IMG/VR virus record: IMGVR_UViG_2920580016_000002
Span: 1-64,000 of that record
Direction: 5' to 3' (one strand)
DNA from: a virus
Lineage: Duplodnaviria > Caudoviricetes
DNA length: 64,000 nt
The position numbers were made by a program, and so were the translations under genes. The notes under the pieces are model-generated. The model worked only from the letters and a program-made list of their open reading frames with translations, did not search any database and had not been told where the DNA came from. Below, piece by piece: positions 8,772-36,451 of this stretch (within the stretch, counting starts at the first letter, position 1; the number at the start of each line of letters is the position of its first letter).

Positions 8772-8795
8772 AGACCACACAGAAAGGCGGGAGAA

Positions 8796-9314: not shown

Positions 9315-9315
9315 C

Positions 9316-9549: not shown

Positions 9550-9683
9550 GCGGTCTAGGGGGATGCGCGGACACGCGCCGCGCGTCCCTCAGTCCGATGT
9601 GACTCCGGACTATTCCCCACTGCTAGAAAACCGTGCGTCTCTCAAACCGGGAGGCGTGCGGCGCAACGCCCAAAGGATGAGCC

Positions 9684-10268: not shown

Positions 10269-10286
10269 CACAGAAAGGCGGAAGTT

Positions 10287-10856: not shown

Positions 10857-10946
10857 CAACGGTCGCGAGCGCTTCTGGCATCGCCCGGATTTCCGGGCGG
10901 TGTCAGTGGCACGGCGAACGTGTCAGCCACACACAGAAAGGCGGTA

Positions 10947-11291
10947 ATGATGAAGCTGCTCAGTCTGTTCAAGCGCACGCCGCGCTACATCGTCGAGATC
11001 GCGCACGACGAGCTTTATGCCACATGCCTTAACCCCGACTGCCCGATGGACCTGGAGCAGATCAAGCTCCTAGACAACGGGGATGAGGCGGCCTATCACA
11101 TCGCGGTCTATCAGGTGTGCCCCGATGGCCACGGTAGCGAGTGCCCGCATGCCAATTTGATCGCCGACACCACCTGTATCGCGGACTACGGCCTTCCTAC
11201 GGGGCGATACAGCACCCCGGACGACATCGGCGGATCTGACTATCTACGCGATGTCGCTAGCGGCATCTGGCCTGGAAAGGTGGCGGCGTAA
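10947..11291 (+). CDS. Cys/His-rich hypothetical protein
   Basis: Leader motif before ATG 10947. Confidence 0.7.
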   Translation: MMKLLSLFKRTPRYIVEIAHDELYATCLNPDCPMDLEQIKLLDNGDEAAYHIAVYQVCPDGHGSECPHANLIADTTCIADYGLPTGRYSTPDDIGGSDYLRDVASGIWPGKVAA

Positions 11292-11542
11292 TGAATGAGC
11301 GGTCGCGACTCTGCGTGCCCATCGAGCGGGAGATTTACCGGCTGCTGCTGGAGCGCGTCCCGAACAATGCAGACCGGCTCCCCACGTTCGAGACCATCAA
11401 CGATATGGACGAGCAGGTAGCCCATGCGGCTATGAACTGCATAGAGAACTATCTGGCGGACAACGGAAGCCTGTGGCACTTCACCAGGCGGAGGCGCGTA
11501 CGCGAGTGGGCCGAGAACACCCTTAAGCGATTCGGTCTCTAA
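11291..11542 (+). CDS. hypothetical protein
   Basis: TAATG stop/start overlap. Confidence 0.7.
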   Translation: MNERSRLCVPIEREIYRLLLERVPNNADRLPTFETINDMDEQVAHAAMNCIENYLADNGSLWHFTRRRRVREWAENTLKRFGL

Positions 11543-11558
11543 GAGAAAGGCGGATGTA

Positions 11559-11822
11559 ATGAACGTTGCCCAAATCATCTGGTCTATGTCGCGGAGCCTC
11601 TCCCGATATGAGAATGCCCGCACGATCCTCGGAGAGACGTACGCGAAGCTCAGCCGTACCGATGTGCCCCCGCTAGACAGCGCACGGGAAGCGCTCGCGT
11701 ACGTGACAGACCACATCGGTTATGCACCCGGTCAGTCGCCAGACACCACGCTCAATGACGCGGTGGCTGTGCTGTCCATGTACGTGGCGATTCTCACTTT
11801 GGCCGACAAGTACGAGAGCTAA
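11559..11822 (+). CDS. hypothetical protein
   Basis: AGAAAGGCGG RBS. Confidence 0.7.
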   Translation: MNVAQIIWSMSRSLSRYENARTILGETYAKLSRTDVPPLDSAREALAYVTDHIGYAPGQSPDTTLNDAVAVLSMYVAILTLADKYES

Positions 11823-11838
11823 GGGAAAGGCGGAAGTA

Positions 11839-12141
11839 ATGGCACGCAAGGTAAAGCCGATGTGGACTCTCGTGCAGCACAGCGCTTATGGATGGGACCG
11901 CAAGGAGGGGTTCCGGCACATGGTAGAGACCAGGTCTGTTCTCGATCGTGTCCAGCAGCGGGAGATTGAGCGCCTGGGCGGCCTGCTCTTCGAGAGCTAC
12001 ACCGACGCCGATGAGGCGGAGTACCGGGAGAACTACCCCGAAGGTGCCGATCTCCTCGCCGGGAAGGTACGCGGCACCTTCGCCGAGTACAACCTTGACG
12101 GACTGAAGCTCTACATTCCCGCGAAAGACGACACGGCCTAA
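11839..12141 (+). CDS. hypothetical protein
   Basis: GAAAGGCGG RBS before ATG 11839 (MARKVKP). Confidence 0.7.
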   Translation: MARKVKPMWTLVQHSAYGWDRKEGFRHMVETRSVLDRVQQREIERLGGLLFESYTDADEAEYRENYPEGADLLAGKVRGTFAEYNLDGLKLYIPAKDDTA

Positions 12142-12233
12142 CGGGTCCTCTGGTCACCATGCCTGCCCCGAATTCTGCGGTGGGCATGGGCGGCTGGGGC
12201 GTCCGCTAGGGCGATCACACAGAAAGGCGGGAG

Positions 12234-12491
12234 ATGGGAAAGCACCGCAAGACCAGCATGCCGAATCCGACCAGCAACGTGGCCAACGAGCACGGCGCGA
12301 TGCTGGCGAGGTTCGGAACGACGGCACCCGAGGCCGAAACTCTCCTCCGTTTCGGCTCTTTGGTCCTGTCCAACATCGCTACTGGCTTCGCTCCTGATCG
12401 GGCAACGGCGGCGGCGCTGCGCTCCTTCAGCGATCCGGAAAACGTGGTCGAACTGGGGGCGTCGGTCTGGGAACGCATCGAAACCGAATAA
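12234..12491 (+). CDS. hypothetical protein
   Basis: Leader motif before ATG. Confidence 0.7.
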   Translation: MGKHRKTSMPNPTSNVANEHGAMLARFGTTAPEAETLLRFGSLVLSNIATGFAPDRATAAALRSFSDPENVVELGASVWERIETE

Positions 12492-12511
12492 CACAGAAAG
12501 GCGGTAGAACA

Positions 12512-12892
12512 ATGCGAGACGTTCACCTGGAATTCCGGGACAGCGTCGGCTGGTGCGGGACGGCACCAGAGGATGAGAACAAGATCACGGATGACCGGCA
12601 GCTCGCCACTTGCGACGACTGCCGTACGGCATGGGAGAACTTCGACGCCTCCCACGATGCCGAGCTGCCGGAGGACTACGACGGGTCCGAGCCGGAGCTA
12701 CTGGCCAAGATGCGCAGGATCCAGGCCGGTGTGGCGGGCCGCATCGGAAACACCCTGATCGACATGCAGAGCGCGAACCTCTGGGTGCAGGCATACGAGA
12801 AGGGCAACGACAACACCAAGGCCAAGCTACTGGAGATGGATCCGGGAACGGCGTGCCTTGCGCTCTGGCGCATTGTTGGGCGGTCGAAGTGA
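12512..12892 (+). CDS. hypothetical protein with C...CxxC motif
   Basis: Leader motif before ATG. Confidence 0.7.
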   Translation: MRDVHLEFRDSVGWCGTAPEDENKITDDRQLATCDDCRTAWENFDASHDAELPEDYDGSEPELLAKMRRIQAGVAGRIGNTLIDMQSANLWVQAYEKGNDNTKAKLLEMDPGTACLALWRIVGRSK

Positions 12893-13065
12893 CCGCCCTT
12901 GAGATTGCTGCTCGGGCCGCGTTCTACGCCCGGCAGCGAGAGGCACAGGCGGTCGTGACGGACCTGAGTCGGCGGGAGCGCGCGGCGCGGCGCTCGGGTG
13001 ACCGGGCGCACGTACGAGCCATCCGGCGCGAGGTGCGGCGCATCCGCTCCGAGGCATCGGCCTAA
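12889..13065 (+). CDS. small Arg-rich hypothetical protein (MTALEIAARAAFYARQRE...)
   Basis: GTGA overlap with the upstream stop; fills the gap to the next leader. Confidence 0.55.
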   Translation: MTALEIAARAAFYARQREAQAVVTDLSRRERAARRSGDRAHVRAIRREVRRIRSEASA

Positions 13066-13091
13066 ACACCACACACAGAAAGGCGGTAGTA

Positions 13092-14060
13092 ATGGCAGAG
13101 ATCGAACAGCGGGAGATCCTCCTCCCCGAAGGCAATGTGTTCGTGTCCATCGAAGAGGCTCGGGGTGAGCGCGGGGAGCTGCCCACGTTGCGCGTGGCGA
13201 CGTCAACCCACACAGGCACCGACGCCGTAGAGACCACGGTCAAGATCAAGGCGCACGAGTACACCTTCCTCATGCGGGTCATGCACGGGACGAAGAAAAC
13301 GTGGTTGTACTCCCGCCAGGAGTGGCAGGAGGAGCACGGATGGCACACGGCAGACAACGAGCACATTCGAACGGCGGGCGGTAACGAGCTGGGCCGGTAC
13401 TCTCCTACCGGCGAGCGGCTGGCCAACGTCGCCGTCATCGCAGCACAGGAGTACGAGAAGCTCGTACCTGACTGGCGCGTGCGCAGCAAGATCGCGGCCA
13501 TGCACAAGGCCATGAGAGCCGATTGGCACAGCTACTACCTGAACACGCGCGAGGCGGTAGGGCTGCGGCTGCACTGCGCGGAGTTGGAAGAGGGTATTCG
13601 CGCGCTGCTGCCTGACCTCACTGAGGACCTGCCTCTGCCCGATTTCGCTCTCGACCTCAACCAGCCCCACTTCCGCGAGATCTACGGCGAACACGAGTGG
13701 TGGCACACAGAGGGCGACGTCTACGGAAACCCCGGCATGTGGCACGTGCCTGGCTGCCCGGTGACGTGGCGGGCCGGTGCGGTCCGCAAGGAAACCGCGC
13801 CCATCATGCGACTCCTGGTGAAGGGCGGCGCGCTGTGCGGCTGCGTGCCTGACAAGACCACGGCTGTGGAGATGCCCGACGGCAGCCTGCGATGGCGGCC
13901 AAGCGGCCTGGCCTGGCACCGCTGGGCGGTGGTTGAGAAGGTCGCCGAGGAGTCACGGCTGGTGAGCTGGCACCTGACAGAGGACGACGTCATAGCCGCT
14001 GTCGGGCGAAGCCAGAACCCCACGGCGTGGGCCGCTCGCGCATACCTCACGCAGCCCTAG
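13092..14060 (+). CDS. hypothetical protein (322 aa; C-terminal H..GC / CGC possible metal site)
   Basis: Leader motif before ATG. Confidence 0.75.
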   Translation: MAEIEQREILLPEGNVFVSIEEARGERGELPTLRVATSTHTGTDAVETTVKIKAHEYTFLMRVMHGTKKTWLYSRQEWQEEHGWHTADNEHIRTAGGNELGRYSPTGERLANVAVIAAQEYEKLVPDWRVRSKIAAMHKAMRADWHSYYLNTREAVGLRLHCAELEEGIRALLPDLTEDLPLPDFALDLNQPHFREIYGEHEWWHTEGDVYGNPGMWHVPGCPVTWRAGAVRKETAPIMRLLVKGGALCGCVPDKTTAVEMPDGSLRWRPSGLAWHRWAVVEKVAEESRLVSWHLTEDDVIAAVGRSQNPTAWAARAYLTQP

Positions 14061-14167
14061 CGGGTCCTCTGATCACCGCGCGTCTACCTAACCGGGACAG
14101 GCGCGCGGCCGGTCGGGGCGTCCGCTCGGGCGATCACCAACACACAGAGAAAGGCGGTAGATCCGTC

Positions 14168-14437
14168 ATGCCCAAAGTCCTGATCTTCCCTTACCAGCGT
14201 CCCCAGAGCCGAGTTCCCGACGTGCGCGGCCTGGGCTGGGTGGCCCGTCGCGCCCTCATGATGCGGGCGTCATTCAAGCTGGAACGCCTGGAGAAGGGCA
14301 CGAGCATCCTCATCGGCCAGACCTTCGACGGCGACGAGCGGACCAAGCTCAAGGCGCAGCTCCAGCAGATCAAGGCGGATCTCCGCGCTATCCGGAAGTA
14401 CGCCAGCGATGGTTTCCCGGCTATCCGGGAGGTCTGA
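14168..14437 (+). CDS. hypothetical protein
   Basis: Leader motif followed by ATG 14168. Confidence 0.65.
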   Translation: MPKVLIFPYQRPQSRVPDVRGLGWVARRALMMRASFKLERLEKGTSILIGQTFDGDERTKLKAQLQQIKADLRAIRKYASDGFPAIREV

Positions 14438-15211
14438 GTGCTCGCCCGATTTTTCTGCGGTGCCCCTGAGCTGAGCTGGGCAGAAGAGCACGGCGACATA
14501 GGGCCGTTGTTCATCAGCTTCAACCGCATTTCCCGGTTAAAGTTTCGGCCGATCATCATCACCACGGATTTCGCTATCGACTCAGGCGGCTTCACACAGC
14601 TTTCCAAGGGCGGTTGGCCTGATGGCTGCGAAGAGCCCTACATCGCCGCGATTCGCAGGCTCAAGCGGCACATCTGGAAGGGTGCGCAGCACCTTCAGTG
14701 GATTGCCCCGCAAGACTGGATGTGCGAGGAAGAGCAGCTAGCCAACACCGGCCTTACGGTGCTCGAACACCAGCAGCGCACCGTACAGAACTTCGTTCGC
14801 CTCACCGAACTTGCCCCCGATCTTCCATGGGCCATGGCGGTGCAGGGCACGAAACCGTCTGAGTATCTCCGCATTCTCGACATGTACGCGGATGCGGGAG
14901 TGGATCCCCACGCGCAGAAGATCGTCGGTGTCGGTTCGATCTGTCGTATTCAGCACACAGACCTGGCCGTAGAGATCATCGAGTCCTTGCACAATGCCGG
15001 GCTGCGGAAGCTGCACGGATTCGGGCTGAAGACTGAGGGGCTCGCAAAGGTCGGGCACCTTCTTACCTCCGCCGATTCGATGGCCTGGAGTGAGCACGCC
15101 CGGAAACAAAAGATCCGTCTCGACGGGTGTCCACACAAGCGGTGCGTCTCTTGCCCGAAGTACGCCAAGCAATGGCGGAACAGGCTCATCCAGCGCGGCC
15201 TAGCCGCTTAA
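14438..15211 (+). CDS. DpdA/TGT-like (queuine tRNA-ribosyltransferase-like) base-exchange protein
   Basis: FAIDSGGF, APQDWMCE, VQG, VGVGSICR, LHGFGLK and SADSMAWS motifs plus C-terminal C.H..C..C. Confidence 0.8.
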   Translation: MLARFFCGAPELSWAEEHGDIGPLFISFNRISRLKFRPIIITTDFAIDSGGFTQLSKGGWPDGCEEPYIAAIRRLKRHIWKGAQHLQWIAPQDWMCEEEQLANTGLTVLEHQQRTVQNFVRLTELAPDLPWAMAVQGTKPSEYLRILDMYADAGVDPHAQKIVGVGSICRIQHTDLAVEIIESLHNAGLRKLHGFGLKTEGLAKVGHLLTSADSMAWSEHARKQKIRLDGCPHKRCVSCPKYAKQWRNRLIQRGLAA

Positions 15212-15229
15212 CACAGAAAGGGGAAAGAA

Positions 15230-15475
15230 ATGACGGATCTCAAAGCCTGGCATATGAACGTGCCGGAGCTGGGCGCGTGGAACGAGGTCGCGACCGGTGC
15301 ATGGCAGCTACACAACTTCGGCAAGCAGCTCGACGACATCGCCTTTCAGGTGCTCAAGCAGGCGCGGCACTACCCGAAAGCCGCTGAGCAGGTGATCACT
15401 GGGCTGAACGAGCAGATTGCCCACCTGGTCAAGCTTCGTGACGACCTGACCGCGTTCAACCAGAACCAGCGCTAG
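15230..15475 (+). CDS. hypothetical protein
   Basis: ACACAGAAAGGGG leader. Confidence 0.7.
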   Translation: MTDLKAWHMNVPELGAWNEVATGAWQLHNFGKQLDDIAFQVLKQARHYPKAAEQVITGLNEQIAHLVKLRDDLTAFNQNQR

Positions 15476-15507
15476 CCCCTACCCAATCACACAGAAAGAG
15501 GGAAGTA

Positions 15508-16026
15508 ATGCCCTTCGACAACCCCTCCCTTCTCGTCACCTTCGTTGGTGAGGGTGAGCACCGGCACGAAGAGCTGGAGTTCGACCTGCTTGACGTCGAG
15601 CTGGCGGAGCTGCAAGACGAGATCCGGAAGGCCATTGGGCCGTGCTACACGATCGAGACGGACGACGACGACTGGGAAGGCGTTGCCGTCGCAGAGGCGG
15701 CGTCGGCGCACGACCTGTGGCAGCTCGCCCGGACGGCTCACAAGCTGGACTATTCGGAGGCGTTCTTGGCCTGGGTGGCGCACGTCCGGCCCTACAGCAT
15801 CCGCAGCCTAAACCTGGAGGAGGCGGTTGAGGATTTCGGCAAGGAGTTCGTCGGAGCTTTCGAGAACTTCGAGGCGTACGGGCGTGACTCGCTGGCGGAT
15901 GAGATCTTGCGCTTCCCGGCGCTGGATACGTTCTTCGACTTCGAGGGGTACGGCGAATGGCTGGCTTCCGACTACACATCGGTTGACCTGAACGCGGGCG
16001 GCTTCGCGCTGTTCAGGAAGGTCTGA
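15508..16026 (+). CDS. ardA: antirestriction protein, ArdA family (DNA mimic)
   Basis: Very acidic; EAFLAWV, F.G.FE..E.Y and FFDFEGYG..L motifs with a FALFR C-terminus. Confidence 0.8.
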   Translation: MPFDNPSLLVTFVGEGEHRHEELEFDLLDVELAELQDEIRKAIGPCYTIETDDDDWEGVAVAEAASAHDLWQLARTAHKLDYSEAFLAWVAHVRPYSIRSLNLEEAVEDFGKEFVGAFENFEAYGRDSLADEILRFPALDTFFDFEGYGEWLASDYTSVDLNAGGFALFRKV

Positions 16027-16030
16027 GGCC

Positions 16031-16402
16031 ATGGCCAACAAGGTCATTCGCAAGTCTGACGGTGCGCGCGGCCAGTGGGTCTTGCGGGCTCAGCCGCAGA
16101 ATCACTCCATCTACGAGTGGCACGACACTCAGCCGATGTTCGCCCAAGAGATCCTTCCTCATAGCGATGTGGCCGACCCGCACGACCGCGAGGGCGGGCG
16201 CTGGGGGCAGGTGGCGGAGCTGGCGCAGGCTGCTTCTGGCGCGGCCGGAGTGCTGGGCGAGATCGCCGCACACTGCATGAACGGCGGTTGGTACAACGAG
16301 ACGGAGCGGGACGCCAAGCGGCAGCTTGAGCGGCTGGAGCACATCACGGCTCTGATGCGCGAGCGCGTAGAGGCTGCGTGCTGTACCGGGCGCAATCGCT
16401 GA
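16031..16402 (+). CDS. hypothetical protein
   Basis: Packed ORF with GAGG RBS. Confidence 0.65.
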   Translation: MANKVIRKSDGARGQWVLRAQPQNHSIYEWHDTQPMFAQEILPHSDVADPHDREGGRWGQVAELAQAASGAAGVLGEIAAHCMNGGWYNETERDAKRQLERLEHITALMRERVEAACCTGRNR

Positions 16403-16411
16403 AGGTCTGAC

Positions 16412-16454
16412 CGGGGTTGACTCCTAGAATCGAGTAGAGCTGGAGTCAACCCCG
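16412..16454. promoter_or_regulatory. perfect 13-bp inverted repeat CGGGGTTGACTCC-N17-GGAGTCAACCCCG upstream of the RHH gene
   Basis: Read directly from the sequence; intergenic, 13 nt before the ATG. Confidence 0.55.
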
Positions 16455-16467
16455 ATCGGAGTACACC

Positions 16468-16803
16468 ATGGCGTATTCAACGAGCATGTACCTGCCCGTC
16501 ACAGTCATCAAAGCAATGAACGAGAAAGCGGAGAAGAGCGGCCTTACCCTATCCGCTGTTGCGGCGGCTCTCGTAACGAGAGCACGGAGGGGCGAACTTC
16601 CCGCCGAGTTTCTCATTCCCCCGAAATTCGAGCGGGGCGAGACCAAGAAAACCCAGAACGTCTACCTTTCAGACGATGTCTGGACGGAGGGCGAAGGCGC
16701 TGCAATAATTCCTGAAAAGGACCGCCCGCGATTCGTTACGGCGCTGATGTACGCCTACTCGCGGTGCCTGGTAGACGTGCAGCTAACCGTCACCATTACC
16801 TAA
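16468..16803 (+). CDS. tandem ribbon-helix-helix-like DNA-binding protein
   Basis: Two beta-strand + helix-helix units: STSMYLP..VIKAMNEKAEKSGLTLSAV and TQNVYLSDDVW...PRFVTAL. Confidence 0.55.
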   Translation: MAYSTSMYLPVTVIKAMNEKAEKSGLTLSAVAAALVTRARRGELPAEFLIPPKFERGETKKTQNVYLSDDVWTEGEGAAIIPEKDRPRFVTALMYAYSRCLVDVQLTVTIT

Positions 16804-16829
16804 CACACACAGAAAGAGTAGCGGAGCAT

Positions 16830-17627
16830 ATGAAGGACCGGGAAAGCATCGAGAAGCGGGCACAGGCCATCCTTGCCAAGGCCGAATCCGCAGCCAAGCT
16901 CGGCAACCATGAGGAGGCGCAGACATATTTCGCTGCCCTCTCTGAGATGTTCCACAAGTACGACCTTGACGCGGCAGCGCTGAAGCCGGAGACGGAGGCG
17001 GGCCGCAAGGCAATCAACATCGTCACGTACTCCTTCCAGGTGTCCAACCAAGGCCAGCACGGGCGCGAGCGCGTTGAGGCTCTGTACGAATTCATCTGGG
17101 CCATGGGCTGCGCCGCCTCCGTGTGGGGCTGCAAGCGCAACACCTACGGTGCGCCGATCCGCTTCGAGGTGCTCGGGCCGGATGACGTTATGGAGCGGCT
17201 CAAGGTCCTGATCCCGGCTCTTCTGCTCCAGATGGACGCAGCGGCCAGCCAGTCGGCGAAGGCGTACCGGGAGCGCGAGCGGAAGGGGATGGAGTGGTTC
17301 TACCGCGACTATCCAGGCGAGCTGGCGTACAAGGTCAAGATCTGGTACCGGTCCGTCATCGTCGGCTACGGCAAGGGCGTAGCGCAGAAGGTATACGAGC
17401 GCATGCAGGTCATCCAGGAGGAGGCGGCAGGCACCGGCAAGGACCTGGTCTTGCTGGACCGCAGGACCGCCGTTGAGAAGGCGTACGAGGAACTCTGGCC
17501 GGACCTCAAGCAGATGCGCGAGATCAAGACTCGTGCTGACGCCGTGGAGGAAGGGCGCAAGCTCGGGCGAGCGGCCGACCTGGGAGACCAGCGTCTCGGT
17601 AACGAGCGCACGAGCATCACTGCTTAG
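16830..17627 (+). CDS. DUF2786-domain protein
   Basis: N-terminal I.KRAQAILAKAES....EEA..Y......HKY.L helix hairpin; leader motif upstream. Confidence 0.75.
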   Translation: MKDRESIEKRAQAILAKAESAAKLGNHEEAQTYFAALSEMFHKYDLDAAALKPETEAGRKAINIVTYSFQVSNQGQHGRERVEALYEFIWAMGCAASVWGCKRNTYGAPIRFEVLGPDDVMERLKVLIPALLLQMDAAASQSAKAYRERERKGMEWFYRDYPGELAYKVKIWYRSVIVGYGKGVAQKVYERMQVIQEEAAGTGKDLVLLDRRTAVEKAYEELWPDLKQMREIKTRADAVEEGRKLGRAADLGDQRLGNERTSITA

Positions 17628-17707
17628 CCGGATTCGTGTCGGGGCGGCGTCCTACGATGGGGCGTCGCCTCTCTTCTTCCCCGAAATGCAGCAGATCAGG
17701 AGCAGAT

Positions 17708-18217
17708 ATGAGCACCCCCGACGAGGGCTACGACGAGCCGCGCGAGCCGATCGCCTGGAGCACTTACCACATCCACGGCACCGATGACGCAGCCGAGATG
17801 CACTGGGCCACGAACGACGATGAGGACACCGGATACCCCGGCGTTCACGCGCAGGACACCTACCGCTTCCAGCGGAACGAGCGCGGCACCGCGATTCAGC
17901 AAGCCGTCCGGCAGGCGGGCGGCGGCTCACGTCAGGGTGTCGGCCACAAGGTGTCGGTCTTCATCAACGGCGAGGAGTACAAGGGCGGCAAGGATTACCA
18001 GCCGACTCCGCCCCCGAAAACCTCTGTGCCGCTGGCGTCGGCGGAGATCGACAAGGATGCGTACTCCGGTTCTCCCGCAATTCGCTTCATGGTCCGCGAC
18101 ATGATCGGCAACGCTCACGGCCAGCTCGTCAGCCTGGAAGTGGCGATGAAGTTGCACGAGGAGCTGGGCCGCGCGATCCAGGAGGCGCAGCGGCAGCAGC
18201 GGGAGAGTGGCGAATGA
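17708..18217 (+). CDS. hypothetical protein
   Basis: AGGAG RBS before ATG 17708. Confidence 0.7.
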   Translation: MSTPDEGYDEPREPIAWSTYHIHGTDDAAEMHWATNDDEDTGYPGVHAQDTYRFQRNERGTAIQQAVRQAGGGSRQGVGHKVSVFINGEEYKGGKDYQPTPPPKTSVPLASAEIDKDAYSGSPAIRFMVRDMIGNAHGQLVSLEVAMKLHEELGRAIQEAQRQQRESGE

Positions 18218-18405
18218 GCTACAGCAGCGCAGGACCGAATTACACCCCCTACCTTGAGGCCAACGCGATTCTCGCAGCGCAGGAAAACGACCGTGAAGAG
18301 GTGCGCCGGATACTGCGGGAGATGCTGCCCGGCGAGCGCGAGCGGCTCGCGGATGCATGCGATGTGCTGAGAAACCAGATCGAATACATGAGGGGCGAAG
18401 AGTGA
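18214..18405 (+). CDS. hypothetical protein
   Basis: ATGA overlap. Confidence 0.65.
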   Translation: MSYSSAGPNYTPYLEANAILAAQENDREEVRRILREMLPGERERLADACDVLRNQIEYMRGEE

Positions 18406-18686
18406 ACAAGATTCACCGAAGTGTCATCACGTCGGCTCTGGATAATGCGGGCGTCGATACGACCGCCGAAATTCTCGACACCTACGAGACGCCTACCGAG
18501 CGGAGCGGATTCGGGATCGAATTTAAGTCGCACGGAGACGCCGCCAAGTTCTTCGTCGGCCTCGGAATGTACCTCTACAACGGGGAGGACGAGGACCGCG
18601 CTTACGAGCTGGCGGAGGCTATGGCCACCGGCTACACGGCCCGAAGCCAGGTCTACTTCTTCCCCGGCTGGGAGCTGGAGGACTGA
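18402..18686 (+). CDS. hypothetical protein
   Basis: GTGA overlap (MNKIHRS). Confidence 0.65.
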   Translation: MNKIHRSVITSALDNAGVDTTAEILDTYETPTERSGFGIEFKSHGDAAKFFVGLGMYLYNGEDEDRAYELAEAMATGYTARSQVYFFPGWELED

Positions 18687-19283
18687 ATGAGCGGACATGG
18701 AGAGCACCAAATCTGGGCAGCCGAGACGGTCACCAACTGCCCGAAGTGCGACACCAAGGACATTCGGTCCGGCCCTGATCCCGAGATCTTGGGATGCCCG
18801 GCGTGCAACATAGCCTGGCGAAAGGGCACAGAGCTGTTCGTCTGCACCTGCGGCGGCTTCCTCGGTGACAACGACCAGGCCATCATGCACGCCCGCGAAA
18901 ACGGCGTCTGCGAGACGTGCCTGGGCACGGGCGAGGCAACGCCGATGGGCGGGCCGCACGGCACTTGCACCTCGTGCGCCGGTAGTGGCGTTGGGTACTA
19001 CGGAATCGAGGAGACGGTGACGCTCCAGGTCGTTCTCAAGGTCCGGAGAAGCGACATCAGGCCGAACAGCGACACCAACCAGCCCGCCGAATTCATCCGC
19101 AACGAATTCGCGACGCGAGCGCGGCGGATCCTCAGCGGGCAGTACCCGCCTGGTGATCCATGGGACGGCGTAGTCGTCGGCACCATTGGTCCGGCTGGTC
19201 GTTCGCTCACGATCTACACGGGCCGCGTGGCTGACGTGAAGGTGATGACTAACGAGATCAAGGCGGAGGACGCGGCGAAGTGA
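18687..19283 (+). CDS. zinc-finger protein with DnaJ-type CxxCxGxG repeats
   Basis: CPKC, CPAC, CTCG, CETCLGTG and CTSCAGSG. Confidence 0.65.
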   Translation: MSGHGEHQIWAAETVTNCPKCDTKDIRSGPDPEILGCPACNIAWRKGTELFVCTCGGFLGDNDQAIMHARENGVCETCLGTGEATPMGGPHGTCTSCAGSGVGYYGIEETVTLQVVLKVRRSDIRPNSDTNQPAEFIRNEFATRARRILSGQYPPGDPWDGVVVGTIGPAGRSLTIYTGRVADVKVMTNEIKAEDAAK

Positions 19284-19531
19284 CGTACTACGGATTCCCC
19301 GAAATCCTGGAGAAGGCGGCGGCCGACAAGGGCGTGACGACGGATGACCTCAAGGGGCAGCACGTCAGGGTGACGGTGGAGCTGGCGGAAGGCGACACGG
19401 CGGTGATCACCGGCAGTACGAAGAAGGAGTGGGTCGGGCCGGGCAAGGTCACCTACGTGTTCTGGCCGGATGGTGGAGTCGGTGAGGACGTCATCGAAGG
19501 CGCAACCTACAGGCGGAAGCCGGGTTACTGA
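19280..19531 (+). CDS. hypothetical protein
   Basis: GTGA overlap. Confidence 0.65.
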   Translation: MTYYGFPEILEKAAADKGVTTDDLKGQHVRVTVELAEGDTAVITGSTKKEWVGPGKVTYVFWPDGGVGEDVIEGATYRRKPGY

Positions 19532-19609
19532 GCACTCGCCTTTGTCGCCCGAATTCGGGGCGGGCGGCATTGGGGTCTGCTCAGGACACACAGAGACGGG
19601 AGAAAGAAC

Positions 19610-19999
19610 GTGGCGATACACGGTAACTACGGCCAGCGCGGTGACGCTATGGACTGGGCCTTCGCTCAGATCCGGGCGGGCAAGGGAATGCGCCCGAATG
19701 AGCGGCTCGTGCTGCTCACCATGACGGCACACGCCGTGCGGGCGACCTTCGACGGTGACGGCTACAACTGGATAGAGGTGCCGGAGCTGGTGGAGCTGAC
19801 GGGCCTGACGGAGCTGTTCCTGTCCATGGTGTTCAGGGACCTCACACAGCGCGGCCTGGTGGAGTGGGGCCTGCCCAGCACGCCGTACAAGTATCGCACG
19901 GACCAAATGCTCGGCATCCCGGAAGGAGTGCGGCTGCGGATATCTCGGGCTGCCTTCGAGACGATCAACGTGCCTGAGGAGGCTCTGCGCTATGCGTGA
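19610..19999 (+). CDS. winged-HTH DNA-binding protein
   Basis: ERLVLL.M...IEVPELVELTGLT...S..FRDL..RGLV pattern. Confidence 0.6.
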   Translation: MAIHGNYGQRGDAMDWAFAQIRAGKGMRPNERLVLLTMTAHAVRATFDGDGYNWIEVPELVELTGLTELFLSMVFRDLTQRGLVEWGLPSTPYKYRTDQMLGIPEGVRLRISRAAFETINVPEEALRYA

Positions 20000-20513
20000 G
20001 CGCAAAATCATCGAGCTGTTCGATGACGGTACACAGATTTATGACTGGGACTGGTGGAAGCGGAATTACATCGCAAATCAGAGCCGAGTTTTCCGGGGCG
20101 ACGCAACGGAGTACGAGCGGGAGTTCTGGGGTAAGGCCGTCTACTACGTTCGCGAGGTCGGTTCCCCGGTACTCTCTCCGGCGCTGAAGCTTCGCTGGAA
20201 GGCGATTCTGAAGACACCGTCTGAGCCGTGGAACAACGATTACGCCTGGTTCGAGGACGAGAACGGGAACAACTACGCATATAACGGCGAGGTTCTGAGC
20301 TTCTCCTACAACCCCGAATTCGAGTGCGAGGTGCCTCCGGTCGCGGTCCTGGACGGTCCCCTGACGCGCGAGATCCTGCGGGCGTGGTCGAAATGGTTCT
20401 TCGGTCCGGCCTACCACGTGACCAGAGCCACGCAGTGCGATCACGGATACAGGCTGAGCGACTCGTGCCCTGGCTGCGATGCCGACGAGGAGAGGATGAG
20501 GAAGAGCGCATGA
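19992..20513 (+). CDS. hypothetical protein, C-terminal C.H...C..C
   Basis: Overlapping packing. Confidence 0.65.
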   Translation: MRERKIIELFDDGTQIYDWDWWKRNYIANQSRVFRGDATEYEREFWGKAVYYVREVGSPVLSPALKLRWKAILKTPSEPWNNDYAWFEDENGNNYAYNGEVLSFSYNPEFECEVPPVAVLDGPLTREILRAWSKWFFGPAYHVTRATQCDHGYRLSDSCPGCDADEERMRKSA

Positions 20514-20923
20514 GCGAGAACCTCAAGCAGAAGATCGTGTACGCCTACGTGGAGCATGGGGACTTCGAGCCTCACGGGCTGCTGGTGCGTGCGTCGCTGG
20601 GCGGCGTGACGACCATGACGGTGGCCGCGTACCTGGACGAGCTGACCGACGGCGACATCTACGTTCGGGACGGCAAGCCCATGGGGAACGCCCAGTACTG
20701 GTACAAGGGCATCGGCGATCTGGACCTCATCCCGGTTACTTTCGAGGCGGAGAACGCACTCCACGAGGGCGGCGACACGGGGGCGAAGATCACCATGAAG
20801 ACCGCCGACGGCATGGTGGTTCAGCACTGGTACGCGTGGGGCATGGCCGTCATGACGCGGGGGCCGCTCGGTCAGGCGATCCCGGACCCTAGGCCGATCG
20901 TAGTTGTGAAGGAGAGCGAATGA
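20510..20923 (+). CDS. hypothetical protein
   Basis: ATGA overlap at 20510 (MSENLKQK). Confidence 0.65.
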   Translation: MSENLKQKIVYAYVEHGDFEPHGLLVRASLGGVTTMTVAAYLDELTDGDIYVRDGKPMGNAQYWYKGIGDLDLIPVTFEAENALHEGGDTGAKITMKTADGMVVQHWYAWGMAVMTRGPLGQAIPDPRPIVVVKESE

Positions 20924-21240
20924 ATCCGCGCGGGTACGAGAGCACCGACGCCGTCAGGGACGCCCGGCACATCCGGGATTATCTGGGAGCGGAGTGGGAC
21001 GTCACGGTAGACGCCTTGACCCTCCTCCCGAAAATTCCGGAAGGGGAGACGGCCGAGCACCTCTACGCCCTGGCGTTCTGCTACGAGGCGGGCGAGAACG
21101 TCTACCAGGTCAGGTACGGCCCCTTGGAGCGGCCAAGAGACCACATGCTGCTCTACAGCAAGTCGGGCCAGGCGGATGTGATGGCTCACTATCTCGAACG
21201 CATGGAGAGCTACGTTAACAGCCCTGAAGGCGGCATCTGA
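20920..21240 (+). CDS. hypothetical protein
   Basis: ATGA overlap, AGGAG RBS. Confidence 0.65.
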   Translation: MNPRGYESTDAVRDARHIRDYLGAEWDVTVDALTLLPKIPEGETAEHLYALAFCYEAGENVYQVRYGPLERPRDHMLLYSKSGQADVMAHYLERMESYVNSPEGGI

Positions 21241-21299
21241 GCAAGTGATGGACGGCGGGTAAGATCCTTGCGAGAGTCGGACGAACGAGGATCTACCGC

Positions 21300-21554
21300 A
21301 TGCCTACTCGCAGGGTCGTACATTCCACCACGACGGGCGACCGGCCAGCCGACGAGGGCCGGGACGTCGTACCTACCTGGGACGAGTACAGGCGTCCGTA
21401 CTCGCTCGACTGGGTGAAGTCGCGAGGCAAACTGGACAGCCACATCAAGATCTCTCCCGAACTTCGGCAACGTGCCCAGGAGGAGTGTGCGAGCAGGGGG
21501 TTACGGCTGATCGACTATGTGATCATCGACGAGCACACGGTCTACATCCCTTAA
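21300..21554 (+). CDS. hypothetical protein
   Basis: Last ORF before the terminator; GAGG RBS. Confidence 0.6.
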   Translation: MPTRRVVHSTTTGDRPADEGRDVVPTWDEYRRPYSLDWVKSRGKLDSHIKISPELRQRAQEECASRGLRLIDYVIIDEHTVYIP

Positions 21555-21634: not shown

Positions 21635-23107
21635 CTAACTTTCCCTGATAATTTCGCCAGGGATCACGCCCATCTGCTTCAGCACGTCGTCTGCGGGCAC
21701 GGCCTCGGGGAGCGCCTGCGCCTTCTCGGCGGCCTTGTCTCCGAAGAGCTGGCCAACGAGACCAGTCCCGGCCGCCGCGCGTCCGCTGGCCTTGATGGTC
21801 ATGCTGAAGCCCTCGGCGTCCTGGGACATGACAGTGCTCAGCATCTTGTGCAGGACCTCCACCTCGCGCGTGAGGTTGGGGTCAGCGTAGCCGCCTTCCT
21901 GCTGCTCAGCGGCATACATGGCGGCTACGCGCTGGCTCTGGATCTCGATATACATATCCTGAATGCGGCGCTTCTGCTCGACTGTACGAGCCTCCACCGG
22001 CAGCTTGTAGACGCACGTTGCGCCGGGCTCGAACTCCTGGCATGAGGGGTTCAGGAAGCACGTATCGCAGAGCCGCTGGCTCTCTCCGCTGACATTGATC
22101 AGATTGAGCTTGCGTGTGGTGAAGTTCCCGTCTTCGCCGACAACGCGCTCTTCCACCTCTTCGACCCCGAATCCAGGGGCGATTTTCGCGGCTTCACGAC
22201 GCCTGGGAGTTGCTAGCCTTTTCCGCTTCTCGGAGGGGTCGTTGGCAACTGTTTCGTCGCCTTCTTCCGCAAAACTCCATCTACGGTTTTCAGTGTCCAC
22301 AGTAACTAGCCTTTTCTCATTCAGATGGTCGATGTACCGCTGCCAGCTCCACAGGGAAAGGCGCAACAGCTCGTTGGAGTCGCCGGACTCGATCAGCTCA
22401 GCATCGAACCCGTTCTTGACAAAGAGCTGCCGGTGACGCTTGCGCGCCTGCTCCGCGTATTTCTTGGGATACCTCTTCAGCTCATTTCCGGTCCAGACGA
22501 TCGTGTCGTTGTACTGGCTGGGGGATAGCCACGAGGTACTCGCGGCCGAGTCCCACGGAAGAGCCTCAAGGATGTCCGGCTTCGTCATGGCAACGCCGTG
22601 TAGCTTGATTCCAGAGCGAGCCAGGGTACGGAGTACCGGCATGATGTCCCGGCCGCCCACGCTCGTCTGGGGGACGCCTACGCGCCCGTACGTGTCGGCC
22701 AGTTCCCGCAGGCGCGGCAGGCCGTCCTCTGCGTGCCAGATGGGCAGGTACTTGTCTCCGGCCATCTCGGCGACTTCGAGGTCTGTGAGCGGGTAGCAAG
22801 GGACGTCCCAGCCGCCGATGAGCGAGGCGCGCTCTACGTTGGCGGCGACGAATGCCTTGTACTTCTTCGCGAAGTCCATTAGCTGGTGTTCGCGATACTT
22901 CTCCGGATTGGCCCGTAGGCTGTACCCGCCTGAGTCGAGCAGGATTTCCGTATCATCCCGGAATTTCGTGGATAGGAGCCACGGGCGGACGAATTTGACG
23001 CGTCTGGAGAGTCCGATGAAGGAGAGCGAGACGTGGCGCACTCCCTGCGAGTGCAGGAAGGTACGCCACGATGGAATCTCAGCTCCCGCGTAGTAGAGGC
23101 GGGTCAT
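21635..23107 (-). CDS. TGT/DpdA-like TIM-barrel protein fused to a Cys4 motif and a helical C-terminal domain
   Basis: LLDSGGYS, YLPIWH, KLHGVAMT and DSAASTSW motifs; then CDTC..C..C and a helical tail. Confidence 0.65.
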   Translation of the reverse strand: MTRLYYAGAEIPSWRTFLHSQGVRHVSLSFIGLSRRVKFVRPWLLSTKFRDDTEILLDSGGYSLRANPEKYREHQLMDFAKKYKAFVAANVERASLIGGWDVPCYPLTDLEVAEMAGDKYLPIWHAEDGLPRLRELADTYGRVGVPQTSVGGRDIMPVLRTLARSGIKLHGVAMTKPDILEALPWDSAASTSWLSPSQYNDTIVWTGNELKRYPKKYAEQARKRHRQLFVKNGFDAELIESGDSNELLRLSLWSWQRYIDHLNEKRLVTVDTENRRWSFAEEGDETVANDPSEKRKRLATPRRREAAKIAPGFGVEEVEERVVGEDGNFTTRKLNLINVSGESQRLCDTCFLNPSCQEFEPGATCVYKLPVEARTVEQKRRIQDMYIEIQSQRVAAMYAAEQQEGGYADPNLTREVEVLHKMLSTVMSQDAEGFSMTIKASGRAAAGTGLVGQLFGDKAAEKAQALPEAVPADDVLKQMGVIPGEIIRES

Positions 23108-30024: not shown

Positions 30025-30207
30025 TTATTGGAACCAGAGCAGCTTTTGATACGTGGACTCTGATACGCCGTTTCTAGAGGGAAGCACTTGGCCCGGCAGG
30101 AGCCTGTTTCTCTCCGATTCCCCGAATCCCAGAGTGCTGGGCTGGATCTGCTCCAGCACCGAAGTAGGCCGGTAGCCACCCTGATAAGGGCGCGTGCCAG
30201 ACGACAT
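30025..30207 (-). CDS. small hypothetical protein (MSSGTRPYQGGY...)
   Basis: Fills the gap between SpoVS and the next ORF. Confidence 0.45.
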   Translation of the reverse strand: MSSGTRPYQGGYRPTSVLEQIQPSTLGFGESERNRLLPGQVLPSRNGVSESTYQKLLWFQ

Positions 30208-30279
30208 GGCCGAAGATGCGAAGGCTTCGGTTCTGTTCTCCACTGCGCTCCTTAGCAACGGGTCTCTATCAGCCTACGG

Positions 30280-30573
30280 TCAATCGACGAGAATCTTGTA
30301 AACCAGCGCACTGACCTTGCCGTCCGCCATTTCTACCGTCGTGAAGCCGATCCTCGCGGCCAGCGTGATGCCGCGCGAGCCGACGTACGACTGAGCGATG
30401 GCGATACCCTTCGAGGTCTGATTCACCGCACCCGCCCCAATGGCTCGAAGGCTGACCTGCTTGCCGTTGTAGATGGCGTGGGCGATGGCGCTCGCAAGCT
30501 TCGCAGCGTCGCTGCTGGCAGACACGCGGAGCAGCACCGACTTGTCGTCATTCTCTTCAATCTCGGAAACCAT
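30280..30573 (-). CDS. spoVS: stage V sporulation protein S-like (Alba fold)
   Basis: LLRVSASS....LASAIAH......V.LRAIGAGAVNQ..K.IAIA..Y, essentially the SpoVS consensus. Confidence 0.88.
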   Translation of the reverse strand: MVSEIEENDDKSVLLRVSASSDAAKLASAIAHAIYNGKQVSLRAIGAGAVNQTSKGIAIAQSYVGSRGITLAARIGFTTVEMADGKVSALVYKILVD

Positions 30574-30651
30574 GTGTTTCTCCTTTTCGGGTTTCCCAAT
30601 CTGAGCCGTCTGTTTCAGATTAGGGAAAAGGAGCGCAAGGTTTATAACGAG

Positions 30652-30684
30652 AAAAGCCCCCGCCCGCTCAAGCGGGTCGGGGGC
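30652..30684 (-). terminator. intrinsic terminator ending the ruvC-containing transcript
   Basis: Minus strand GCCCCCGACCCGC-TTGA-GCGGGCGGGGGC-TTTT. Confidence 0.75.
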
Positions 30685-30694
30685 CTCTCCCAGG

Positions 30695-30717
30695 GATCAC
30701 CAACACACACAGAAAGG
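30695..30717 (-). ncRNA. candidate 3'-UTR sRNA seed antisense to the early-gene leader
   Basis: Minus RNA CCUUUCUGUGUGUGUUGGUGAUC is complementary at 22/23 nt to the leader at 14132-14154 and to the shared CACACAGAAAGG core. Confidence 0.45.
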
Positions 30718-30750
30718 AAAGTGCATGACTCCAGTCCGATCTGTGTCCTA

Positions 30751-31299
30751 TTATGCCACACGTTCTGTGTGTAGCACTACCTCCTTGATTGCCCGAATTT
30801 CGTGGAGGCGGGCGTCAGAGCCGTATCCCTCGGTGAGATACTTAGCCATTCTGGCGAGAGTGTAGGAGTCGGCCTCGTTGTCGTTCTTGCACTCGATTCC
30901 CCACCTTTCCTTCACGCCGTCGATCACCTCCTGTTTGCTGGCGTTCCCCTTTCCGGAAGCAAAGAGTTTGACCTTGGTCGGAGCGATGATCGTGGGGTAG
31001 CAGGCTGGCTCGGGAAGGTGCCAGCGCAGTACCCGCTTTACCGCGTAGGCGAGAGATCCGGCCTCTTCCCGCCGGTTCTGGGAGTCGCGCGAGAATCCCT
31101 CCATCGCCACGTGAACCGGATACTCCGGCAGCAGACAGATCTGCTCCCCCAACCACCGTTCAACGTGCATGAGCCGGTCCACGCCCTTGCCGTACTTGGT
31201 CGCGGTGAATTTCACCACGGAGATATCGGCGTAGCCGTCGTACAGTCGCGTCAGGCCGAAGCCACCAAAGGACTGGTCGATCCCCAAAAAGAGGCTCAC
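30751..31299 (-). CDS. ruvC: RuvC-like Holliday junction resolvase
   Basis: FLGIDQS, hAMEG, PTKVKLFASGKGNASK and DNEADS motifs. Confidence 0.85.
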   Translation of the reverse strand: MSLFLGIDQSFGGFGLTRLYDGYADISVVKFTATKYGKGVDRLMHVERWLGEQICLLPEYPVHVAMEGFSRDSQNRREEAGSLAYAVKRVLRWHLPEPACYPTIIAPTKVKLFASGKGNASKQEVIDGVKERWGIECKNDNEADSYTLARMAKYLTEGYGSDARLHEIRAIKEVVLHTERVA

Positions 31300-34245: not shown

Positions 34246-34935
34246 TTAGATGAGGTCCGCGAAGGCGGCCGAGTCGATTTCGGACAGGACAGTGAGCGCC
34301 ATACGCGCGAATTGCTGAATTTCGGCGTCGGCAGCGGGAGCGATGCGACGCTGGATGACCTCGCGCCAGGCCCGGAAATTGCCGGTGACGACCATTTCGA
34401 CGGGCGTCATGTTCGGCAGGACGGCGCGGGCGGCTTCGCGCGCCTGCTTGCGCTTGAGGCCCTTGGAGATGAGTTCTGTGGCGAGGGAGTTGTACCAGCT
34501 CAGCATTTCCTCATAGCGAGCGGTAAGGGCCATGACCAGCTCGTGATCCCCGGCGATAGCGGGCGGAATGACCGGCTTGTCATCCGGCGCGCAGTAGCGC
34601 TGGCTGATGACGCTGAAGGACAGGTGCCGGTGTCTGGTGATCTCCGCCAGGAAGGCCCTGGAGACGTCCTGCACGTACAGCGTGGCGGAGGAGTGCTCCA
34701 GGATGGACAGGTGTCCCTGGGCGATGATGTGGGCGACGTAGTCGGCGTTCTTCTGCGTCGCCGGGTTCTTCTTCTCCCAGCTCTGGTAGCACAACCTTCC
34801 CGCGAATTCCGTCAGGGATTCGGTGTGGCCTGGCCAGCCGCCATCCGGCTTAGGATCGACTGGCAAGTACTTGAGCTTCTCATCCACGACCCTCCCGCCG
34901 TTGAGGCGAGTGGAGGCAATTACAGTGACTTCCAA
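34246..34935 (-). CDS. thyX: FAD-dependent thymidylate synthase
   Basis: AGR.CY.S, H.S.LEH, RHRHLSFS..SQRY, AREAAR.VLPN, GNFRAW and EIQ motifs. Confidence 0.95.
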   Translation of the reverse strand: MEVTVIASTRLNGGRVVDEKLKYLPVDPKPDGGWPGHTESLTEFAGRLCYQSWEKKNPATQKNADYVAHIIAQGHLSILEHSSATLYVQDVSRAFLAEITRHRHLSFSVISQRYCAPDDKPVIPPAIAGDHELVMALTARYEEMLSWYNSLATELISKGLKRKQAREAARAVLPNMTPVEMVVTGNFRAWREVIQRRIAPAADAEIQQFARMALTVLSEIDSAAFADLI

Positions 34936-34947: not shown

Positions 34948-35463
34948 TTAGTTGTTCCAGCGATTGTTTCTGGCCTCGCGATCGGCGCGGCCGGTCCTTC
35001 TGGTGAGTTCGCGGGAGACGAGGAAGACATCCCTTTCCAGGGCCTCGTAAACGGTCTCCGTGAGTTTCCGAACGGCGTAGGCGTTGGTCACGACCTGGCG
35101 GGCCTCTACAACGTCGGGGTCTTCATCGGCGGCGGCTTTTGCGGCGGAGACTGATTTCGCGGCTTTGCCGCTGATGAGAACCCGAGCCCGGCGCACGTCC
35201 AGCTCTGCCTCCGCGTCCTTCTCATCGATCGCCGCCAGACTGAGTTGGCCTCCGGCGTAGGCGACCCATGCGTTGAGCAGGGCGAACAGCTCCATCAGCT
35301 CGGCGTCCGCCAGCTCCGTCAGGTCCTTCGGCAGTCGCGGCCGGGACTCGTCGGGCTGCTCGGGCAGCTCCAGTCCGGCGGCTTCCAGCGCGAGCGTTGC
35401 TGCGCGACTTGCTTGGCTGGTCGGCTTCGTCTCGGACGTCTTGGTTCTGCTGATTCGGCGCAA
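34948..35463 (-). CDS. helical hypothetical protein
   Basis: GGAG RBS before TTG 35463; track start is 35562; start uncertain. Confidence 0.6.
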   Translation of the reverse strand: MRRISRTKTSETKPTSQASRAATLALEAAGLELPEQPDESRPRLPKDLTELADAELMELFALLNAWVAYAGGQLSLAAIDEKDAEAELDVRRARVLISGKAAKSVSAAKAAADEDPDVVEARQVVTNAYAVRKLTETVYEALERDVFLVSRELTRRTGRADREARNNRWNN

Positions 35464-36451
35464 CGTCGCTCCAGCACTGGGAGAAGTAGGGGCAGGCTTT
35501 ACAAGTGGAGGAATCGCGGTCGAATTCGCGCTCTGGGATCGTCCCGGTTTGGTAGACGGCATCCTTGATCGCGGTGGCCTTCTCCAGAAGAGGCTCTACG
35601 ACGGACAGGTCCAGCGTGATCCCGAATTCCTTCGTCGCCTGGTTGGGCTTGAATTCGTAGATGAAGGAGCCGCGCCGGACCTCCAGGCCCATGAGGCGCA
35701 TCGTGATGTAGAGGTATATCTGGAGCTGGCGGACATGGCTAGGCAGCGGCTCCTGAAGGTCGGCCCACAAGCCGTCCAGGTCGTAGAGCTTCTTGCCCGC
35801 CTCTTCGCTCTCGAAGTAGTACTTCTGGAGCAGCTTGGGCGCGTCCATGCGGAGGGTTCCCATGCCGATCGTCTTGATTTCGATCAGCCGGGCCTTCTTC
35901 AGCAGCATGCCGTCGGAGTGGCCCTCAATCAGGAATTCCTTCTCGGCCCGAATCGGCACCTCGGCATACCGCACGGCCGGGGATTTGCACTGTGGGCAGG
36001 TGACCGGGTCGAGCTGAATGCCGGTAAGCCAGCCGCAGTGCATGCACTTCCACTGGCCGTAGAGGTCGCCACCCAGTCGGAGCCAACCCTGCCATTTGTC
36101 GTGGAGCGCGTGTCCTGTGGCGAAAATGCCTTCCTGCTGGAAGTTGAACTCGCCCTTGGTCATCAGCTTACCGGCGCGGGCGTTCATGATCCGGTAGAAG
36201 GTGTTGCGGGCGCACCAGTCGTCCTTCGCCATCTCCGAGGGGTGGATGACGTCGGTACGGCGGTCGATCGGCTTGAGGTGCTCGGCGGCCAGGTCGTTGG
36301 AGATGTCCCCGAGAACGTCCCAGTGCGTTCCCTTGCGCTTGCTGATTTCGGCGAGAGTGCCGGTCAGCTTTACGGCAGGTCGTCGTCCTCGTCCGCTGCC
36401 TGCGCCAGGATTTCTTCCTCCGGCGCGTCCGGTTCCGTTGGCGGGTGCCAT
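35222..36451 (-). CDS. Cas4-like PD-(D/E)xK exonuclease with 4-Cys cluster
   Basis: HPS....WC.R, G..H, GH.DG, EIKT, QLQ.Y and C..CPY..QC; start and C-terminal extension uncertain. Confidence 0.8.
   Translation of the reverse strand: MAPANGTGRAGGRNPGAGSGRGRRPAVKLTGTLAEISKRKGTHWDVLGDISNDLAAEHLKPIDRRTDVIHPSEMAKDDWCARNTFYRIMNARAGKLMTKGEFNFQQEGIFATGHALHDKWQGWLRLGGDLYGQWKCMHCGWLTGIQLDPVTCPQCKSPAVRYAEVPIRAEKEFLIEGHSDGMLLKKARLIEIKTIGMGTLRMDAPKLLQKYYFESEEAGKKLYDLDGLWADLQEPLPSHVRQLQIYLYITMRLMGLEVRRGSFIYEFKPNQATKEFGITLDLSVVEPLLEKATAIKDAVYQTGTIPEREFDRDSSTCKACPYFSQCWSDVAPNQQNQDVRDEADQPSKSRSNARAGSRRTGAARAARRVPAATAEGPDGAGGRRADGAVRPAQRMGRLRRRPTQSGGDR

Follow-up and report, generated by a model that had tools for sequence, protein, structure and literature searches.

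An inverted copy of the early-gene leader in the ruvC 3' untranslated region of a prophage from a Streptosporangium-like bacterium

The leader that precedes early genes of a large prophage is present in one additional, inverted copy within ruvC's 3' untranslated region (3'UTR) (30695-30717, plus strand), between the ruvC stop codon and the terminator of the operon. This copy is real and does not come from chance. Its best explanation, which has about an even chance of being correct, is a lineage-specific insertion of ~30 nt without dedicated function, as suggested by comparison with the closest relative. A second reading, in which the end of the ruvC-operon mRNA acts as an antisense RNA on early genes, appears unlikely. 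All positions refer to the window, i.e. the whole stretch of 64,000 nucleotides that was analysed, unless another record is named.

General features of the prophage

The window corresponds to G000:C1:654950-718949 of a 12.4-Mb genome with 70% GC, within a prophage of ~110 kb (roughly C1:634-746 kb) that is flagged by a drop in GC to 63%. The host of the prophage is a Streptosporangium-like bacterium; the RuvC of the closest relative carries the name Streptosporangium sp. NPDC050855 in the protein search, and the comparison at genus level covered 110 species genomes of 8-14 Mb each. A block of small genes is encoded on the plus strand (5340-21554), followed by a minus-strand block (21635-63870) encoding a DNA polymerase, a helicase, a ribonucleotide reductase, a UvsX-like recombinase, a thymidylate synthase, an exonuclease, an RNase H-like nuclease, a dNMP kinase, an endolysin, a RuvC-like resolvase and a SpoVS homologue. 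The RuvC-like Holliday junction resolvase (30751-31299, minus strand; 182 aa) matches phrog_159 (E 4.7e-21), and the SpoVS-family gene downstream of its terminator (30280-30573, minus strand) matches PF04232 (E 9.2e-19) and phrog_35646 (E 7.3e-28).

In the plus-strand block, a small gene (14168-14434) is separated by one stop codon from an in-frame DpdA/TGT-like gene (14438-15211) carrying a DSGGF motif, and this stop codon lies at the identical place in the closest relative. Another TGT-like gene (phrog_887) is encoded in the minus-strand block (21635-23107, minus strand). The presence of two TGT-like genes suggests a deazaguanine-type DNA modification.

The leader of the early genes

Thirteen sense copies of the leader (core with at most one mismatch), the potential targets of an anti-leader RNA, are found on the plus strand between 5767 and 16817, each 5-13 nt before an ATG or GTG. 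They open ORFs of 77-381 aa, or 51-381 aa when the leaders of the closest relative are included. The early leader sequence is AGAAAGGCGGTAGATCC and its 12-nt core is CACACAGAAAGG. This core has 18 matches in the window at two mismatches or fewer, against 3.98 expected, and 17 of the 18 are on the plus strand. Perfect copies number seven in the 12.4-Mb genome, all of them in the window and on the plus strand, and the reversed-pattern control returned no match in the same genome. Elsewhere, single copies of the core occur at chance level (14 of the 109 other genomes of the genus), and the 55 single matches of the leader pattern in the genome contig collection are likewise consistent with chance.

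The 3' end of the host 16S rRNA is GGAUCACCUCCUUUCU (contig C60). Nearly all of this tail can pair with the consensus leader (AGAAAGG-C-GGU-A-GAUCC), at a computed -20.4 kcal/mol and far beyond a normal Shine-Dalgarno (SD) interaction; the leader is therefore an extended SD site preceded by an unstructured CA tract. The predicted opening energy of the leader regions is 0.9-6.8 kcal/mol, which would leave them accessible. One more leader core is present in the left arm of both this prophage (G000:C1:641089, minus strand) and the closest relative (position 8996, minus strand); it is sense to the local minus-strand genes and lies ~80 nt from the next start codon, and is hence not start-associated.

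Processing elements and other repeats of the early region

Three type II hammerhead ribozymes are located in early intergenic regions on the plus strand (8710-8779, 6453-6531 and 5675-5749), with 42.8, 37.1 and 27.9 bits for a gathering score of 37. Two of them are the only matches to Rfam 15 that reach the gathering score over the window, with none at the ruvC 3'UTR. Each of the three ends directly upstream of a leader copy, and early mRNAs are therefore probably cut into units that start shortly before the leader. Furthermore, a long hairpin of ~80 nt is found twice in the window (14052-14142 and 12132-12218, plus strand) and twice in the closest relative (35099-35192 and 36088-36176). It comprises 30 pairs, six of which show compensatory changes among the four copies, begins at the upstream stop codon, and leads into a single-stranded 3' tail, CGAUCACC, and then the leader. 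This hairpin is a candidate RNase III-type processing site, whose role would be the same as that of the hammerheads.

Two other repeats were observed. A 17-nt motif, CGTCTNYC(T/A)AACCGGGA, has 12 copies in the window (2350, 5687, 6052, 6465, 7733, 9636, 14081, 28654, 35542, 49852, 52886 and 63906) against 0.08 expected. It is always sense to local transcription, in both arms of the phage, and two of its copies form stem III of a hammerhead; conceivable roles are those of an RNA hairpin signal and of a promoter element of the phage. A repeat of ~75 nt (7769-7845 and 9540-9615, plus strand), which carries a GC hairpin and the near-palindrome CAGTCCGATGTGACTCCGGACT, is kept in the closest relative; it is a candidate for either an early promoter/operator or a further structured RNA.

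The inverted copy and the ruvC 3'UTR

An earlier note, made from the sequence alone, had recognised an inverted leader copy at 30695-30717, and the present analysis bears this out. Indeed (i) these 23 nt match 14132-14154 at 22 of 23 positions, the two sites being the only matches at three mismatches or fewer, against 0.00 expected from shuffled sequences, (ii) they also match one leader of the closest relative at 19 of 19 positions, (iii) the 12-nt core, at 30706, is perfect (12/12), and (iv) this is the sole leader copy that runs against local transcription in ~125 kb spanning the prophage. As the other repeat families of the phage follow the strand rules strictly, the inverted copy stands out as a single exception. 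It consists of a GATCACC prefix, a CA tract and AGAAAGG, and its 23 nt match one subfamily of the early intergenic modules, over the single-stranded tail and the leader. GGCGGTAGA, the SD-proximal second half of the leader, is not present in it, and the computed 16S-tail pairing is -11.6 kcal/mol versus -20.4 kcal/mol for the consensus.

The copy opposes local transcription, ruvC, spoVS and the whole of the block 21635-63870 being on the minus strand. Because the surrounding genes are all encoded on that strand, the minus-strand RNA carries the complement of the leader (anti-leader). In the order of this RNA, the ruvC stop codon (30751-30753) is followed by a 65-nt 3'UTR (30686-30750) containing the anti-leader, a stable GC stem-loop (30656-30685) and UUUU (30652-30655). 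The stem-loop and U tract were predicted by a terminator scan and by folding to be the intrinsic terminator of the ruvC operon (30650-30685, minus strand). Short pieces that the UTR has in common with an element near 9590, which the earlier note had already suspected to be fortuitous, are at chance level (11 matches at three mismatches or fewer versus 7.5 expected).

Minimum-free-energy and ensemble folds of the minus RNA predict a local hairpin (30707-30746) in which the anti-leader core is sequestered by base pairing of 30707-30713 (UCUGUGU) with 30740-30746 (ACACAGA). The 5' arm of this hairpin begins 4 nt after the ruvC stop codon. In the thermodynamic prediction, the anti-leader core CCUUUCUGUGU has an unpaired probability of ~0, except for two U residues, and would cost 9.2 kcal/mol to open. 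A mask formed by the last ruvC codons had been proposed in the earlier note; the 10-nt complement is present at 30763-30772, but the fold pairs the anti-leader with 30740-30746 instead, and the last ruvC codons form their own small hairpin. These codons (CAC ACA GAA CGT, 30760-30771) resemble the leader core in the minus-strand sense, and are the only look-alike in the ruvC unit, where no minus-strand leader copy was found. The proposed mask is accounted for by protein coding, because the codons in question encode the C-terminal T-E-R tail of RuvC, which is conserved in G134, the closest relative, and in the more distant G007 (T-E-L in L104, from IMG/VR 3300027317).

The only sigma-70-like promoter match between 29000 and 32000 lies at 30725-30754 on the plus strand (ATGACT, 18-nt spacer, TATTAT) and would drive an RNA antisense to the 3' end of ruvC. 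Read on the minus strand, the same AT-rich patch gives a -10-like hexamer, CATAAT, immediately past the ruvC stop codon. The intergenic regions of the minus-strand block, when inspected for a promoter motif in common, yielded none that could be used. On the other side of the terminator, the spoVS upstream region (30574-30649, minus strand) contains a hairpin (30595-30625) directly 5' of the SD and shares 88% identity with G134 over 113 nt. This region and the terminator are better conserved with G134 than the flanking genes are; IMG/VR 3300027317 likewise has a similar hairpin ahead of spoVS, and a regulatory 5'UTR structure is likely. A search of 30200-31000 against Rfam 15, including the phage C4 antisense RNA, yielded chance-level matches only (E of at least 0.55).

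Comparison with relatives

The closest relative, G134 (IMGVR_UViG_2935054407_000001), is a Streptosporangium prophage of 108,967 bp that is colinear with the window at ~77% identity (range about 70-81%) and carries the same leader 5-13 nt before 11 starts. Its ruvC 3'UTR is ~36 nt long: the terminator is kept and ~30 unrelated nt replace positions 30690-30747, which have no alignable counterpart in pairwise alignments. There is no leader copy in this 3'UTR and no antisense leader copy elsewhere in G134, and the alignment of the right half of the window-specific UTR with the G134 UTR is not significant (p about 0.58). Among distant relatives, the order ruvC-terminator-spoVS is maintained, with 3'UTRs of 14 nt (G007), ~21 nt (L104, IMG/VR 3300027317) and 23 nt (Streptomyces phage Alone3), and hairpins analogous to the terminator follow ruvC in all three. 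A start-associated repeat family was not found in G007 or in the 53%-identical G135 (a contig of IMG/VR 3300027317).

Searches for further relatives were largely negative. Megablast against phages found none, the distant phage search recovered only spoVS in Streptomyces phages, the conserved intergenic 30-mer matched G134 only in the viral contig collection, and no RuvC closer than 78% was found among 5.8 billion proteins. Since the other relatives have 3'UTRs of 14-23 nt, the 65-nt UTR with its leader copy looks derived and specific to this lineage, as far as the alignments indicate. With a single close relative available, the absence from G134 could equally be a loss.

Origin and possible roles of the inverted copy

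The reading of the copy as a lineage-specific insertion of ~30 nt would account for these observations as follows. A segment comprising the leader and the GATCACC tail of the long processing-type hairpins would have been copied, in inverted orientation, between the ruvC stop codon and the pre-existing conserved terminator, with illegitimate recombination or template switching between leader repeats, which are numerous, as the most likely mechanism. As a by-product, every ruvC-operon mRNA would end with an anti-leader that is presumably mostly locked in the local hairpin and pairs only weakly with early mRNAs. We infer the polarity of the change, a gain in the lineage of the window, and the origin and lack of function proposed here are conditional in the same way. 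A recent insertion is likelier than an antisense brake because the sole close relative does not have the copy. The relic that the earlier note had listed as an alternative is the part of its interpretation that fits best.

Several observations count against the insertion, among them the strict strand rules of the other repeat families, to which this copy is the one exception, and the possible loss from G134. A perfect 12/12 core indicates a copy that is either young or under selection, which look alike, and the site is the one at which regulatory RNAs derived from 3'UTRs carry their seeds, transcribed and directly 5' of a terminator hairpin. The three leader-core-like elements within 70 nt exceed chance and hint at an origin mechanism or at a selected structure. 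Two other routes to the copy were considered and rejected. Quasi-palindrome copying from the ruvC codons does not account for the 23-nt match, which includes the prefix GATCACCAAC and the suffix AGG, both absent from these codons, and an inversion between the ruvC codons and a leader is excluded by the colinearity of the window with G134.

It is improbable, though conceivable on the energy calculations, that the 3' end of the ruvC-operon mRNA, or a stable fragment of it protected by the terminator, is a functional anti-leader RNA. Such an RNA would pair with the CACACAGAAAGG box 8-31 nt upstream of ~13 early starts and compete there with the 16S tail for the extended SD. A shut-off of early-protein synthesis by this RNA once the replication genes are transcribed is similarly improbable; under this reading, the local hairpin might be opened, and the seed freed, by ribosomes that terminate at the ruvC stop codon. 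Taken as a whole, the model of a replication-operon mRNA whose tail is a built-in anti-leader, mimicking the 16S 3' end, reaching into the CA tract of the leader, unmasked by ribosomes and silencing ~13 super-SD early genes in trans, is unlikely to hold.

Several observations are nevertheless in favour of an anti-leader RNA. Transcription of the copy is unavoidable, its core is perfect and it is the sole exception to strict strand rules; its seed lies directly 5' of a conserved intrinsic terminator and includes CCUUUCU, identical to the 3'-terminal 7 nt of host 16S rRNA; and the position of the 5' arm of the masking hairpin, starting 4 nt past the stop codon, would suit an opening by ribosomes. 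Complementarity is perfect over 12-15 nt for ~9 leaders and extends over 23 nt (22/23 match) for one, and the target leaders are predicted to be accessible. As duplexes predicted with the whole 60-nt UTR did not discriminate between starts (all from -30 to -45 kcal/mol), seed-only and accessibility-corrected estimates were used. With the seed only, the leader-bearing starts give -23 to -28 kcal/mol versus a median of -14.8 kcal/mol over all 114 ORF starts, and -20 kcal/mol or lower is reached by 11 of about 30 starts in the plus-strand block versus 2 of 84 others.

Against this, the copy is absent from the only relative that has the same leader system, and no antisense copy replaces it elsewhere there; the fold predicts a paired seed core, and the net pairing is weaker than in typical validated sRNA-target pairs; no Rfam family matches; and no credible promoter of its own was found, only the -10-like CATAAT, read by eye. 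Indeed, the duplex of the 12-nt core is worth -14.7 to -18.3 kcal/mol, and -2 to -8 kcal/mol after opening costs, so that pairing between anti-leader and leader is predicted to be possible and not strong. The earlier note had expected pairing across the SD of most early genes; in silico it is possible with 13 leaders, across the upstream SD element, but "most" overstates the 13 starts, or the 11 of about 30 at -20 kcal/mol or lower. With regard to the sRNA-like architecture that the note had described, the leader complement followed by a terminator in the minus-strand 3'UTR is present, but a selected sRNA function is not supported, the copy being absent in G134, its core predicted to be paired and its Rfam search negative. 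Among the features of an antisense sRNA, a predicted Rho-independent terminator (kept in G134) and plus-block-specific complementarity to initiation regions were found; the seed is predicted to be inaccessible, and it is not conserved in the closest relative, G134 having the targets only.

A role as DNA is highly improbable: the leader would be a protein-binding site whose extra copy acts on double-stranded DNA, e.g. as a roadblock or operator at the ruvC-spoVS boundary, and its orientation would matter less. Repeat families bound by phage repressors are known, such as the stoperators of Cluster A mycobacteriophages, which have been contrasted with start-associated sequences (PMC3203893), and the copy is placed at a transcription-unit boundary. 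However, the other copies lie at a fixed distance from start codons and are complementary to 16S rRNA, pointing to a translational role at the RNA level, and G134 has no copy at the same boundary.

Finally, an action on the plus strand, as the start of a 46-aa ORF (30725-30865, plus strand; antisense to the 3' end of ruvC) or as the 5' end of an RNA antisense to ruvC, can be largely set aside: the ATG follows the core of the copy at 30706 by 7 nt, a spacing that falls in the range shown by the 13 true leaders (5-13 nt), and the plus-sense order of hairpin, GATCACC, leader and ATG mimics the early intergenic modules, but the ORF has a GC content by codon position of 0.40/0.62/0.57 versus ~0.6/0.45/0.8 in real genes here, matches no Pfam or PHROG family, has a start without counterpart in G134 and a leader deprived of its SD-proximal half (16S-tail pairing falling from -20.4 to -11.6 kcal/mol), the region upstream of this leader is the minus-strand spoVS control region, and the only plus-strand promoter-like site sits downstream of it. 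The ORF, which the earlier note had offered as a possible real gene, is judged not to be one.

Comparison with known systems

In phage T4, the proteins RegB and RegA carry out a temporal shut-off of early mRNAs at ribosome-binding sites, and c4 of phages P1 and P7 is an antisense RNA that masks a ribosome-binding site and acts within its own operon. The anti-leader reading would resemble RegB and RegA in that a later-expressed phage factor recognises a motif common to early ribosome-binding sites and stops translation. Unlike the present 3'UTR, c4 has its own Rfam family, which has no match in the window.

In Staphylococcus aureus, a C/U-rich motif in the icaR 3'UTR pairs with the SD, blocks initiation and makes a substrate for RNase III (PMC3868564). 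The ruvC 3'UTR is similar in carrying a C/U-rich anti-SD motif. In icaR the target is the SD of the same mRNA; in the ruvC operon, by contrast, none of the genes bears the leader, and any action would therefore have to be exerted in trans on other transcripts.

The nearest analogue so far described is the start-associated sequence (SAS) of Cluster K mycobacteriophages (Pope et al. 2011, PMC3203893). This short, asymmetric and SD-containing repeat occurs more than 10 times, in one orientation, a few nt before the (mostly ATG) starts of non-structural genes, and virtually absent from the host genome (PMC3203893). Cluster K phages also carry a lone inverted SAS that is not tied to a gene start (PMC3203893), and no function has been assigned to the SAS in the literature (PMC3203893, PMC12699233). 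In Mycobacterium phage Anaya (Cluster K1), there are 16 plus-strand SAS and a single minus-strand one, which falls between gp96 and gp97 in a gap of 385 nt. This inverted SAS (34871-34883 of the stretch L108, 59870-59882 of the record) lies in the non-coding gap after the gp96 terminator, and a rightward RNA would therefore carry an anti-SAS.

The leader described here is like the SAS an asymmetric SD repeat whose copies number more than 10, keep to one orientation and are scarce in the host genome, with a lone inverted copy in addition; 13 of its copies in the window lie before starts. It differs from the SAS consensus GGGATAGGAGCCC, reading CACACAGAAAGG-CGGTAGA, and is an analogue rather than a member of that family. 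The host genus and the type of phage (here a prophage of ~110 kb) differ as well, hammerheads or long hairpins often precede the leader, whose pairing extends over nearly all of the 16S tail, and the inverted copy, unlike that of Anaya, lies in a 3'UTR next to a terminator and not after one. By analogy, the inverted SAS of Cluster K1 may be regarded as a parallel, not as evidence.

Significance

If the inverted copy is only a scar, it shows that leader repeats are copied around the genome, and that complementarity plus a terminator is insufficient for calling a phage sRNA unless conservation or a transcript supports it. If the antisense reading were true, it would be a class-specific early shut-off borne by a 3'UTR in an actinobacterial phage, would account simply, and in a testable manner, for how a large phage of this kind makes the early-to-middle switch, and might explain the lone inverted SAS of Cluster K mycobacteriophages, which has been noted without explanation since 2011. 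The early region is of independent interest, as hammerhead ribozymes and long, co-varying intergenic hairpins occur there together with a leader complementary to nearly all of the 16S tail.
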